Of a DNA stretch of 8,008 bases, positions 3,893 to 5,883 are shown one piece after another (position 1 is the first letter of the stretch; each line of letters begins with the position of its first letter). The notes under the pieces were generated by a model that made no database searches, had not been told where the DNA came from, and saw only the letters and a list, made by a program, of their open reading frames with translations. A program made the position numbers and the translations under genes. The DNA is from a virus (Duplodnaviria; Heunggongvirae; Uroviricota; Caudoviricetes), in the IMG/VR virus record IMGVR_UViG_2534682157_000011, positions 1-8,008 of that record. The stretch is one strand, 5' to 3'.

Positions 3893-4176
3893 ATATTGAT
3901 TCTGCAATTCCGGGACGTTACACTGTTCAGGCACCTTATAAAACGGGTGCCGGGATTGGCGTCCTGAAATTGATTACTGAGCATAACCGCGCTCATGCGG
4001 TTTTTTCGTGTCATGAGCATTACTACGCCCAAATTATGGTGGGGCGTACAGGGCCGACTTCGGTCGGGCCGGGTTCGGTAGTCTCCGGTAACGCCAACCC
4101 TGTACGTCTCACCACCTCTGTGATTGGCGTCCCATGTGGTGAGTTTTCTAAAAAACTGACTACCGGGGCTGTCACT
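3893..4176 (+). promoter_or_regulatory. Conserved hairpin-rich leader upstream of rha copy 1 (candidate cis-regulatory RNA)
   Basis: Carries the elements described for copy 2, with a slightly weakened 5' double hairpin. Terminator-like AACCGC-GCTCAT-GCGGTT plus T-run at 3985-4006. Hairpin CCGAC-TTCG-GTCGG at 4054-4067. Stem CTCACCAC (4108-4115) / GTGGTGAG (4136-4143) with a loop sequence unlike copies 2 and 3. Confidence 0.4.
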
Positions 4177-4740
4177 ATGACTACTCTCCCAACCCTCTCT
4201 CAACCTGAAATTGCCATCGTTGATGGTCAGGCTGTTACATCTTCTTTGGCTGTTGCTGACTTTTTCTCTAAACGTCATGACGATGTTCTGAAAAAGATCC
4301 GCATTTTGGATTGTTCTCCAGAGTTTTGTGCCCGCAATTTTGCGGAGACATCAATTTTGGTACGCCAGCCCAACGGCGGTACTCGCAAACTACCTTGCTA
4401 TCAAATAACCCGCGACGGCTTTGCGTTTCTTGCTATGGGTTTCACGGGTAAACGTGCTGCCCGGTTCAAAGAGGCATACATCAATGCCTTTAACCAGATG
4501 GAGAAGAGTTTATCAGGTGCCGATGCGTCTGATATGTCAGCTGTCGCACGAAACGCCAGAGGCGTATACCTGCATTTGCGTGAAATCCATCAAATCTGGA
4601 CAAGCCAGCTTTATCCAATGCTTAAGGCTGTTGAATCTCCGCTGGCCAGCAAACTGTACGACCGTGTAGGTGATGCTGTTTTTGGTGCTGCACTTGTTGA
4701 TTCCAGGCTGAATGGTTCTGACAAGGAGGTTCGCCTATGA
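4177..4740 (+). CDS. Rha-family phage regulatory protein (antirepressor-like), copy 1
   Basis: Begins MTTLPTLSQPEIAIVDGQAVTSSLAVADFFSKRHDDVLKKIR and contains KLPCYQITRDGFAFLAMGFTGKRAARFKEAYINAFNQME, which matches the Rha-family core from memory. SD-like GGGG 8 nt upstream of ATG 4177. The track ORF 3718..4740 starts at a TTG far upstream and is treated as leader; the true start is uncertain. Confidence 0.8.
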   Translation: MTTLPTLSQPEIAIVDGQAVTSSLAVADFFSKRHDDVLKKIRILDCSPEFCARNFAETSILVRQPNGGTRKLPCYQITRDGFAFLAMGFTGKRAARFKEAYINAFNQMEKSLSGADASDMSAVARNARGVYLHLREIHQIWTSQLYPMLKAVESPLASKLYDRVGDAVFGAALVDSRLNGSDKEVRL

Positions 4741-5036
4741 TCCGCTACCTGAATATTGATTCTACAATTCCGGGACGTTACACTGTTCCGGCACCTTATA
4801 AAGCGGGTGCCGGGCGTGGAAACCCGGAATTCAATATAGAGCACAACCGCGCTCATGCGGTTTTTTCGTGTCATGAGCATCGTTACGCCCAAATTATGGT
4901 GGGGCGTGCAGGGCCAACTTCGGTTGGGCCGGGTTCTATGTTGACCGGTATTTCCACCCCTGTACGTCTCACCACCTATATGGTCGTGGAAAGCCTTGGT
5001 GGTGAGTTCATTGAATTCAACATAGGGGCTGTCACC
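4741..5036 (+). promoter_or_regulatory. Conserved hairpin-rich leader upstream of rha copy 2 (candidate cis-regulatory RNA)
   Basis: Outer stem AATTCCGGG (4766-4774) / CCCGGAATT (4823-4831) encloses inner stem CCGGCACC (4788-4795) / GGTGCCGG (4806-4813). Terminator-like AACCGC-GCTCAT-GCGGTT followed by a T-run (4845-4866). UUCG-tetraloop hairpin CCAAC-TTCG-GTTGG (4914-4927). Stem CTCACCACC (4968-4976) / GGTGGTGAG (4998-5006), ending ~30 nt before the rha ATG. Confidence 0.4.
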
Positions 5037-5588
5037 ATGACTACTCTCCCAACCCAATCTCACCCTGAAATCACGATTATCAATGGTCGTGTTGTCACCA
5101 CATCTCTTGCAGTTTCGAATTACTTTACTAAACGGCATGAGCGGGTTTTAGATAGAATTCGAAACCTCGAATGTTCCGCTGAATTTACTGAACACAATTT
5201 TGTGTTAAGTGAATACACCGACGCATCAGGCCGCAAACTTCCCTGCTATCAAATCACCCGCGACGGTTTTGCGTTTCTTGCCATGGGCTTCACTGGTAAA
5301 CGTGCTGCCCGGTTCAAAGAGGCATACATCAATGCCTTTAACCAGATGGAGAAGAGTTTATCAGGTGCCGATGCGTCTGATATGTCAGCTGTCGCACGAA
5401 ACGCCAGAGGCGTATACCTGCATTTGCGTGAAATCCATCAAATCTGGACAAGCCAGCTTTATCCAATGCTTAAGGCTGTTGAATCTCCGCTGGCCAGCAA
5501 ACTGTACGACCGTGTAGGTGATGCTGTTTTTGGTGCTGCACTTGTTGATTCCAGGCTGAATGGTTCTGACAAGGAGGTTCGCCTATGA
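5037..5588 (+). CDS. Rha-family phage regulatory protein (antirepressor-like), copy 2
   Basis: Begins MTTLPTQSHPEITIINGRVVTTSLAVSNYFTKRHERVLDRIR, with the same Rha core. Differences from copy 1 across the core are mostly synonymous or conservative, and the C-terminal ~98 codons are identical at nucleotide level. SD-like GGGG 8 nt upstream. The track ORF 4737..5588 is a longer in-frame reading through the leader. Confidence 0.8.
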   Translation: MTTLPTQSHPEITIINGRVVTTSLAVSNYFTKRHERVLDRIRNLECSAEFTEHNFVLSEYTDASGRKLPCYQITRDGFAFLAMGFTGKRAARFKEAYINAFNQMEKSLSGADASDMSAVARNARGVYLHLREIHQIWTSQLYPMLKAVESPLASKLYDRVGDAVFGAALVDSRLNGSDKEVRL

Positions 5589-5883
5589 TCCGCTACCTGA
5601 ATATTGATTCTACAATTCCGGGACGTTACACTGTTCCGGCACCTTATAAAGCGGGTGCCGGGCGTGGAAACCCGGAATTCACCAAAGCGCACAACCGCGC
5701 TCTTGCGGTTTTTTGTGTCATGAGCAGCATTACGCCCAAATTATGGTGGGGCGTGCAGGGCCAACTTCGGTTGGGCCGGGTTCTTTGGTGACCGGTATTT
5801 CCACCCCTGTACGTCTCACCACCAATAAGGTCGTGGAAAGCCTTGGTGGTGAGTTATTAAAAATCACCAAAGAGGCTGCCATC
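5589..5883 (+). promoter_or_regulatory. Conserved hairpin-rich leader upstream of rha copy 3 (candidate cis-regulatory RNA)
   Basis: 5' double hairpin identical to copy 2. Terminator-like hairpin keeps its stem with a changed loop (AACCGC-GCTCTT-GCGGTT plus T-run, 5693-5714). UUCG hairpin at 5761-5774. A 1-nt deletion relative to copy 2 right after the T6 tract breaks the long reading frame but leaves every hairpin intact. Confidence 0.4.

Follow-up and report, generated by a model that had tools for sequence, protein, structure and literature searches.

A few loop bases determine the specificity of the C4 antisense RNA and thereby underlie the heteroimmunity of phages P1 and P7, and the C4 RNA of P1, like the CI RNA of P4, is processed by RNase P. 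The anti-immunity locus of phage N15 reportedly controls antirepressor genes through a small processed CA RNA. We analyzed a window of 8,008 nt (positions 1 to 8,008 of the IMG/VR virus record IMGVR_UViG_2534682157_000011, Caudoviricetes), in which three tandem copies of rha, an antirepressor-like gene of the Bro network, are each preceded by a hairpin-rich leader. Our results make it highly probable that the leaders are RNA immunity cassettes, each complete in itself and controlling one rha, of the type known from P1 c4, P4 CI-seqA, N15 and Gifsy-1 IsrK.

In P1, the C4 RNA represses icd/ant (PMC8198154), and the immI c4 control of icd-ant in P1 and P7 was described by Citron & Schuster 1990 (cited in PMC2864571 and PMC8198154). 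In P4, the CI RNA and seqA are located within eta, a gene of the Bro network, and follow an internal promoter that is constitutively active (PMC10111431), in the order seqA-CI-seqC within nested eta/kil genes (Forti et al. 1999, as summarized in PMC10111431). The eta gene is translated only from the upstream promoter, coupled to the upstream gene, and this translation overrides the RNA control, which is described as Rho-dependent termination at timm; the relatives of P4 CI and seqA are detected by the Rfam models C4 and isrK (PMC10111431). In the prophage Gifsy-1, a fraction of the IsrK transcripts extends past the terminator and forms an mRNA that is translationally silent, and the short IsrK acting in trans raises the translation of anrP 139-fold via orf45, which starts approximately 107 nt into the transcript (PMC4825925).

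Results

Two small RNAs in each leader

The Rfam scan found two RNA families above their gathering scores in all three leaders, with every such match on the plus strand. The isrK model (RF01394, gathering score 50 bits) matched a segment of 77 nt, which consists of hairpin 1, hairpin 2 with a box a1 in its loop, a box b1 and an intrinsic terminator, and the C4 antisense RNA model (RF01695, gathering score 45 bits) matched downstream of it over the full model length 1-87 (Table 1). These matches, together with the covariation of stems and antisense boxes, bear out the proposal of the initial annotation that the leaders contain a functional RNA analogous to P1 c4. The GC stem with a T6 run before each rha, which had been described as terminator- or attenuator-like, was detected in every copy by the terminator scan; it is the terminator of the IsrK-like RNA, so that the interpretation of the leader as a transcription attenuator is also partly right. 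Because of its CACAAC motif, the IsrK-like RNA was also suspected to be the enterohemorrhagic Escherichia coli anti-small RNA AgvB, which we rejected, since AgvB is located downstream of PR' (PMC4104026) and the leaders are not.

Viral contigs were scanned with a C4 hairpin pattern, which yielded 120 loci corresponding to 97 unique modules with 36 distinct loop/junction combinations. A covariation alignment was built from 41 diverse modules, including those of P4-like satellites and phage N15, and was compared with controls in which the pairing partner was slid and with 500 shuffles; the pairing frequencies and compensatory changes given below refer to this alignment. The stems are 92.5% paired compared with 33-48% in the slid controls, and 22 pairs with 156 alignment cells changed on both sides, a result that 0/500 shuffles reach. 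In genome contigs, among the matches listed, the pattern also occurs on five contigs of the Gammaproteobacteria metagenome-assembled genome (MAG) JAGKWO01 and in several Cellvibrionaceae MAGs, which may be due either to chance or to C4-like RNAs having expanded locally outside enterobacteria. Most of the other genome matches listed come from GC-rich Actinomycetota and look like chance. In another prophage context of E. coli JKHS016 (positions 38-2364 of the locus), three genes in a row are annotated as Rha family regulator, 'ash family protein' and Rha family protein; a single C4 was found there by the pattern, and a more divergent cassette may precede it.

In module 1, a closing stem of 17 bp in the C4-like RNA encloses the UUCG hairpin and a second hairpin at 4068-4089. 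The helices of the closing stem are 97.6% and 98.8% paired across the homologues with 10 pairs changed on both sides, and directly 3' of the stem a purine followed by an invariant CC was present in 41/41 sequences. The UUCG hairpin reaches 100% pairing, and 2 of its pairs covary. Its compensatory change on both arms, already noticed between the copies (CCGAC/GTCGG versus CCAAC/GTTGG), recurs in the homologues, where the two variable pairs have both sides changed in 17 and 10 sequences and are unpaired in 0. The 5' arm of the C4-like RNA contains a conserved AUG (4036, 4896 and 5743), located at +106 of the predicted transcript. Of the nested double hairpin that the initial annotation placed at the start of the leader, the first hairpin (GCACC/GGTGC) was upheld, with 4/6 pairs compensatory, whereas the outer stem is not conserved in other lineages, and its TTCCGGG arm belongs to the spacer of the promoter-like site, so that it would precede the probable start of the transcript.

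The C4-like RNA also takes part in an alternative stem of 8-9 bp with the 5' arm CTCACCAC(C) at 4108-4116, 4968-4976 and 5815-5823 and the 3' arm (G)GTGGTGAG at 4136-4143, 4998-5006 and 5845-5853. The 5' arm doubles as the 3' arm of the C4 closing stem, and because one arm is common to both helices, they are mutually exclusive. This is the 9-bp stem that had been noted for keeping both arms while the loop of copy 1 is completely different; 6/9 of its pairs are compensatory, and it is 87.4% paired compared with 30-58% in the slid controls. The loop of module 1 (stem 4108-4115/4136-4143) indeed differs from those of copies 2 and 3, because this loop is the antisense target box a2.

Matching antisense boxes on both sides of the C4-like RNA

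The loop of the second C4 hairpin (b', 12 nt) is complementary to two sites, the box b1 in the single-stranded part of the IsrK-like RNA and the box b2 at the Shine-Dalgarno (SD) sequence of rha. Analogously, the C4 junction a' is complementary to the box a1 in the loop of IsrK hairpin 2 and to a2 in the loop of the alternative stem, and the target boxes a2/b2 start about 5 nt downstream of the C4-like RNA. The b triplet is distinct in each module, the b2 codes of modules 1, 2 and 3 being GACUACCG, UCAACAUAG and UCACCAAAGA, while the a triplet is UUGGCG/CGCCAA in module 1 and GUGGAAA/UUUCCAC in both modules 2 and 3. The cognate b'/b2 duplexes have energies of -14.9 to -17.6 kcal/mol versus -5.3 to -15.0 kcal/mol for the non-cognate ones: -17.6 kcal/mol in module 1, where a'/a2 adds a duplex of -10.6 kcal/mol, -14.9 kcal/mol in module 2 (non-cognate targets -5.3 and -8.1) and -17.6 kcal/mol in module 3 (non-cognate targets -9.3 and -11.6).

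The matching extends to the homologues. An alignment-free duplex test was applied to the 36 loop/junction combinations: in 86% of them, at least 90% of the foreign downstream leaders pair less well with the loop than the cognate one does, and for the IsrK regions the same holds in 92%. Column-wise, a1/b1 and a'/b' are 82.7% paired versus 32-52% in slid controls, with 188 double-change cells, and the a1/a' helix is 94.7% paired with 6/7 pairs compensatory. In the predicted fold of the read-through RNA, the boxes of IsrK and C4 are paired with each other in cis (z = -5.3). At 4980-5043, the same predicted fold pairs the a2 region with the region of the rha start codon (GUCACCAUGA) and forms a long hairpin enclosing b2 and the SD, a possible extra layer of sequestration.

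Upstream of each IsrK-like RNA, the pattern search located a promoter-like site. Its geometry, a -35 and a -10 hexamer separated by 17 nt and located 6-7 nt before hairpin 1, recurs in all lineages including the P4-like loci and N15, with differing hexamers.

The rha genes and the open frame of the leader

The ATG codons at 4177, 5037 and 5884 are the true rha starts, with SD-ATG segments at 4165-4179, 5025-5039 and 5872-5886. According to the repeat families, the C-terminal half of rha3 is unlike rha1 and rha2, and the sequence search found no solved structure for any Rha relative.

The caveat that the leader frame is open and could code for an N-terminal extension proved well founded. The frame is in phase with rha and repeats the nested pattern of P4 eta/kil; leaders 1 and 2 have 0 stops in it compared with 5-8 in the other frames (P about 0.01 per copy by shuffling). 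Leader translations in this frame match Pfam Phage_ASH with 37.4 and 29.6 bits (cut-off 26) and positions 48-143 of PHROG 821, the rest of which corresponds to rha, and PGAP annotates leaders of this kind either as 'ash family protein' or as part of 385-aa 'Rha family' proteins. The three long open reading frames (ORFs) of 389, 283 and 281 aa are all intact in the assemblies L245, L246, L247, L250 and L251, and in L245 and L246 the 389-aa Ash-Rha form of module 1 starts on the stop codon of the cII-like gene. Within the 5' part of this long ORF, a DUF4222 ORF of 59 codons lies out of frame at 3720-3899; it was called with PF13973 in the assembly L252, and its TGA stop (3897-3899) falls in the -35 hexamer of module 1. 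On the opposite strand, ORFs cross the leaders at 3856-4278 (140 codons), 4611-5138 (175 codons) and 5459-5692 (77 codons); they are most likely mirror images of stop-poor, hairpin-rich DNA and not genes.

The substitution pattern of the leaders agrees with the earlier remark that their differences are mostly non-synonymous, unlike those of rha: copies 1 and 2 differ in the rha frame by 6 synonymous and 33 non-synonymous codons, and the ratio of non-synonymous to synonymous substitution rates (dN/dS) is 0.69-10.9 for the leaders versus 0.30-0.46 for rha. The indels between module types total multiples of three, including one compensated frameshift that alters about 20 residues.

The window corresponds to the draft contig AFDV01000015.1 (GCA_000225125.2), which has one G fewer at 3708 and one T fewer at 5708 than five other assemblies. 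Both single-base homopolymer deletions are private to this contig among the assemblies compared, several of which differ from the window in nothing else. Each loss breaks a long Ash-Rha frame, and copy 3 has T6, not T7. The frame breaks are probably homopolymer sequencing errors, and the terminator of module 3 probably has a true tail of T7. We had considered the frameshift of copy 3 as evidence against a coding leader, which is withdrawn, because this one-base loss in the T-run is absent from the other assemblies compared.

The three-module array and its distribution

The window covers the early region of a lambdoid prophage (Table 1). The modules are spaced by 860 and 847-848 nt according to the repeat finder, and the leaders have a mean column identity of 90% in the alignment of the three copies, with a pairwise divergence of 14-29%. 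The 3' parts of rha1 and rha2 are 98% identical over 300 nt (4384-4683 versus 5232-5531), although the two differ in their 5' parts and leaders, and a core of 122 nt is 100% identical between rha1 and rha3 (4384-4505 versus 6079-6200). The array appears to be a recombination-built mosaic and not a simple recent triplication. The genes from the cII-like to the PerC-like one are chained by 4-nt start/stop overlaps (ATGA at 3572, 4737, 5585, 6426 and 6647; GTGA at 7462), which potentially couple translation straight across the three RNA cassettes. In the assembly L251 (GCA_002460615.1, positions 3849-4694, corresponding to window 5682-5788), module 3 has b1 and b' of module 2 and its own b2; the C4 of this module would mismatch its own target at the ribosome site, because b' comes from module 2 and b2 is unchanged. 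This could be a real gene conversion between neighbors or a chimera of short-read assembly.

A 3.1-kb query comprising the array region and its flanking genes matched 1,925 of 5,426 complete E. coli genomes and 62 phage records, including the Shiga toxin (Stx) phages of types Stx2a, Stx2c and Stx1a and the phages mEp460, cdtI and ST64B. The usual arrangement is one module between the cII-like and replication genes; a tandem junction of an rha end with a leader was found in only three complete genomes, and a fourth genome has two copies. The annotated complete E. coli and phage collections contained no three-copy record. The three-module array was found only in a small set of assemblies; at least 22 contigs carry it, one of them being the complete chromosome CP027328.1.

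Table 1. Coordinates of the rha array, its RNA elements and the neighboring genes in the 8,008-nt window.
Feature	Position	Strand	Evidence or remark
Three tandem modules of ~850 nt, each a ~285-nt leader and an rha ORF	3893-6429	+	
Promoter-like site TTGATT-N17-TACACT, module 1	3896-3924	+	Pattern search; 6 nt before IsrK-like RNA
Promoter-like site TTGATT-N17-TACACT, module 2	4756-4784	+	Pattern search; cross-lineage geometry
Promoter-like site TTGATT-N17-TACACT, module 3	5604-5632	+	Pattern search; cross-lineage geometry
IsrK/seqA-like RNA, module 1	3931-4007	+	Rfam isrK 60.1 bits; terminator scan; cognate C4 duplexes
IsrK/seqA-like RNA, module 2	4791-4867	+	Rfam isrK 62.0 bits
IsrK/seqA-like RNA, module 3	5639-5715	+	Rfam isrK 61.5 bits
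Hairpin 1, GCACC/GGTGC	3931-3950 and equivalent positions in copies 2 and 3	+	
IsrK boxes, module 1	a1 UUGGCG 3956-3961; b1 3971-3983	+	
IsrK boxes, module 2	a1 GUGGAAA in hairpin-2 loop; b1 4830-4843	+	
IsrK box, module 3	b1 5678-5697	+	
Intrinsic terminators (GC stem and T-run)	3985-4006, 4845-4866, 5693-5714	+	Terminator scan
C4/CI-like RNA, module 1	4032-4119	+	Rfam C4 82.3 bits; fold z-score -5.5; covariation
C4/CI-like RNA, module 2	4892-4979	+	Rfam C4 82.4 bits; fold z-score -5.1
C4/CI-like RNA, module 3	5739-5826	+	Rfam C4 83.6 bits; fold z-score -4.6
UUCG hairpin	4054-4067, 4914-4927, 5761-5774	+	
C4 boxes, module 1	loop b' GUUCGGUAGUCU 4073-4084; junction a' AACGCCAAC 4090-4098	+	
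C4 boxes, module 2	loop b' GUUCUAUGUUGA; junction a' UUUCCAC	+	
C4 boxes, module 3	loop b' GUUCUUUGGUGA; junction a' UUUCCAC	+	Junction same as module 2
Target region, module 1	4123-4170	+	a2 4123-4134; b2 4157-4170, overlapping rha1 SD GGGG (4165-4168)
Target region, module 2	4981-5030	+	a2 4981-4993; b2 5016-5030, abutting SD GGGG
Target region, module 3	5828-5877	+	a2 5828-5840; b2 5863-5877, overlapping SD GAGG
rha1 short form, 187 aa	4177-4740	+	Pfam Phage_pRha 95.4 bits
rha2 short form, 183 aa	5037-5588	+	Pfam Phage_pRha 105.5 bits
rha3 short form, 181 aa	5884-6429	+	Pfam Phage_pRha 107 bits
Long Ash-Rha2 ORF (283 aa), start ATG	4737-4739	+	Overlaps rha1 stop (ATGA); gene calls in eight other places
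Long module 3 ORF, start ATG	5585	+	Overlaps rha2 stop
S24-type repressor gene	1981-2673	minus	
cro-like gene	2771-3031		
CII/CP76-like gene	3024-3575		
74-codon ORF	between rha3 and the replication-initiator-like gene		
Replication-initiator-like gene	6647-7465		
PerC-family gene	7462-7956		PF06069 as called in other assemblies

Discussion

By analogy with the described systems, each internal promoter would in a lysogen yield mostly the IsrK-like RNA ending at the intrinsic terminator, and read-through would give a C4-like RNA of ~80 nt, cut from the longer transcript. The 5' cut is probably made by RNase P, with which the purine-CC motif after the closing stem is consistent. The C4-like RNA would then pair with a2/b2 and block ribosome entry at rha, probably provoking Rho-dependent termination as well, and the abundant short IsrK-like RNA would titrate it via a1/b1 and lift the repression, in the manner of IsrK and anrP. 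With three address codes, each rha would be gated largely separately, with some cross-talk expected between modules 2 and 3, because the a-contact is common to both. During lytic development, ribosomes that enter transcripts from pR through the upstream gene could translate the Ash frame and so escape the RNA control, in the way P4 Eta does with respect to Kil; judged by this analogy, such a bypass is plausible, at roughly even odds.

Several observations weigh against this interpretation of the leaders as RNA immunity cassettes. The c4-a1b1 model (RF03163) remained below its gathering score in the leaders (21.7-25.6 bits versus 46.7); its match overlaps the 5' part of the isrK match, and the stretch is better described by isrK, its role as a1/b1 carrier being supported by the complementarity. 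The consensus promoter scan did not call TTGATT-N17-TACACT, whose hexamers are weak (8/12 matches at a threshold of 9). Column-wise covariation of the downstream contacts a2/b2 is moderate (66.7% paired versus 40-53% in slid controls), partly because the alignment register is poor there, and the b'/b2 matching was therefore judged by duplex energies, which need no alignment. Orthogonality between the modules is incomplete, since the C4-1 loop reaches -15.0 kcal/mol with the non-cognate leader of module 3. The relatives differ in the sign of regulation, which is repression by the processed RNA in P1, P4 and N15 and activation by IsrK in Gifsy-1. Finally, the Ash peptide is not conserved as a protein, because the dN/dS of the leader is near or above 1.

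Among the other explanations, a purely cis-acting attenuator, in which transcription either terminates at the T-run or reads through and no processed RNA acts in trans, would account for the terminator after the first hairpins, for a C4 3' arm that can pair with either the 5' arm or the downstream segment, both supported by covariation, and for the long-range cis pairing in the predicted fold. It does not explain why the exposed loop and junction each match separate sites on both sides and covary with both, nor the tRNA-like closing stem and purine-CC tail typical of processed C4/CI RNAs, and the relatives IsrK (PMC4825925) and P4 CI (PMC10111431) act in trans; we consider it quite unlikely. 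Still less credit can be given to the possibility that the leader serves as the N-terminal 'Ash' domain of a long, 283-389-aa Rha protein and nothing more, its hairpins being incidental. The open frame in rha phase, the Phage_ASH match, the PHROG 821 match across leader and rha, the PGAP calls and the ATG overlapping the upstream stop all speak for a coding region, but the leader evolves unlike rha, and its substitutions keep base pairs and not residues. A three-way matching of loop and target boxes would be senseless for a protein, and a promoter-like site and an intrinsic terminator are found inside the supposed domain; the RNA boxes stay matched where the compensated frameshift rewrites the residues, and the Rfam scores are far over the cut-offs.

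The initial annotation had also named P22 sar as a possible analogue, that is, a small RNA made from the opposite strand across the rha start. The analogy fails, as nothing in the leaders points to the minus strand: the above-threshold Rfam matches and the whole covarying structure are on the plus strand, and the terminator scan found no minus-strand terminator-like site within the leaders. What speaks for a sar-type RNA is only the overall setting, in which RNA controls a gene of antirepressor-like kind; the long minus-strand ORFs over the leaders are not evidence of transcription, and we regard it as extremely improbable. The chance that the three-copy array is an assembly artifact of a repeated 850-bp unit is practically negligible. 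Such artifacts are conceivable in a short draft contig with two homopolymer errors, and one assembly (L251) has the chimeric copy 3; however, the array recurs nearly base for base in the contigs of separate assemblies, the complete chromosome among them, and its leaders differ by 14-29% among the copies.

Given that the leaders are most probably RNA immunity cassettes, we tentatively raise a further idea, which is itself rather doubtful, that the cassettes form a repertoire of RNA 'addresses', with a two-part a/b lock for each rha and codes that reassort between phages. Rha-type modules have three a-types and three b-types, of which 6/9 combinations were seen, and the three boxes of each set are always matched. 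The third a code (UUCUCAC/GUGAGAA) was found with each of the three b codes, and 5/5 arrays examined combine different b codes. If this were true, a prophage could act in trans on as many as three kinds of phages, incoming or co-resident, by silencing their matching rha, and could release its own Rha proteins separately, and the locus would be a multiplexed RNA-based immunity/anti-immunity array instead of a simple duplication.

The results have practical consequences for prophage annotation. Annotation pipelines treat the leaders as coding for protein, under the names 'ash family protein' or 'Rha family' protein (283-389 aa), whereas their bases are in fact conserved as RNA. In work on the Rha proteins of lambdoid prophages, those encoding Stx included, one should reckon with an internal promoter and two small RNAs, and possibly also with nested isoforms of the protein. 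Antirepressor-like genes are probably under RNA control in many prophages of these pathogens, since the module region with its flanking genes matches about a third of complete E. coli genomes and occurs in Stx2a and Stx2c phages. The three-cassette array offers a natural test bed for the loop bases that set antisense specificity and for cross-talk between cassettes.

The RNA system itself is known, being curated in Rfam and experimentally studied in relatives, and as far as can be judged from the DNA, the cassette has the features of the C4 family, namely the model score, the fold and the complementary boxes upstream and downstream. With the c4 systems of P1 and P7 it shares the RNA fold, the a'/b' boxes complementary to a1/b1 upstream and a2/b2 downstream, a downstream target at a ribosome binding site and a controlled gene of the antirepressor class. 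It differs in that P1 has the gene icd, while here a separate icd-like gene is missing and b2 lies at the SD of rha itself, in the controlled Phage_pRha-domain protein in place of P1 Ant, in an upstream a1/b1 segment that is a terminated isrK-type small RNA and does not fit the c4-a1b1 model, and in the host element, a lambdoid prophage with the cassette in triplicate. The likeness to P4 includes the promoter-like site inside a long ORF, the seqA-like and CI-like RNAs matching the same two Rfam models, and an open Ash frame whose start is apparently coupled to the upstream gene, with a predicted shorter product starting downstream of the RNA elements; P4-like loci were recovered with the C4 pattern and align along the whole leader. 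In P4, however, eta is read in another phase than the next gene, Kil is the short product and the cassette is single, whereas here there are three cassettes, each with a long frame in phase with rha.

In Gifsy-1, the isrK-orf45 (STnc1160)-anrP locus resembles the cassette in the IsrK match above threshold, in the succession of promoter-like site, IsrK, terminator, presumed read-through, structured segment and antirepressor-like gene, and in the AUG of the structured segment about 106-107 nt from the start. The predicted cis pairing here between the IsrK middle part and about position 160 corresponds to the 'structure A' described there (G28/G31 with C162/C159; PMC4825925). Unlike orf45, which stops and is coupled to anrP, the 47 equivalent codons here run in frame into rha; moreover, the downstream RNA of Gifsy-1 was not treated as a c4 homologue by the authors (PMC4825925), and that locus adjoins antQ, whereas the array lies between the cII-like and replication genes. 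The N15 genome was recovered by the same C4 pattern and aligns over the promoter, hairpins, terminator, C4 and target, but with an identity of only about 72% over part of the leader, with no long open frame upstream of the C4 AUG and with other downstream genes. A single cassette of this kind is no surprise to specialists; the unusual feature of the locus is three cassettes with different codes in a row.

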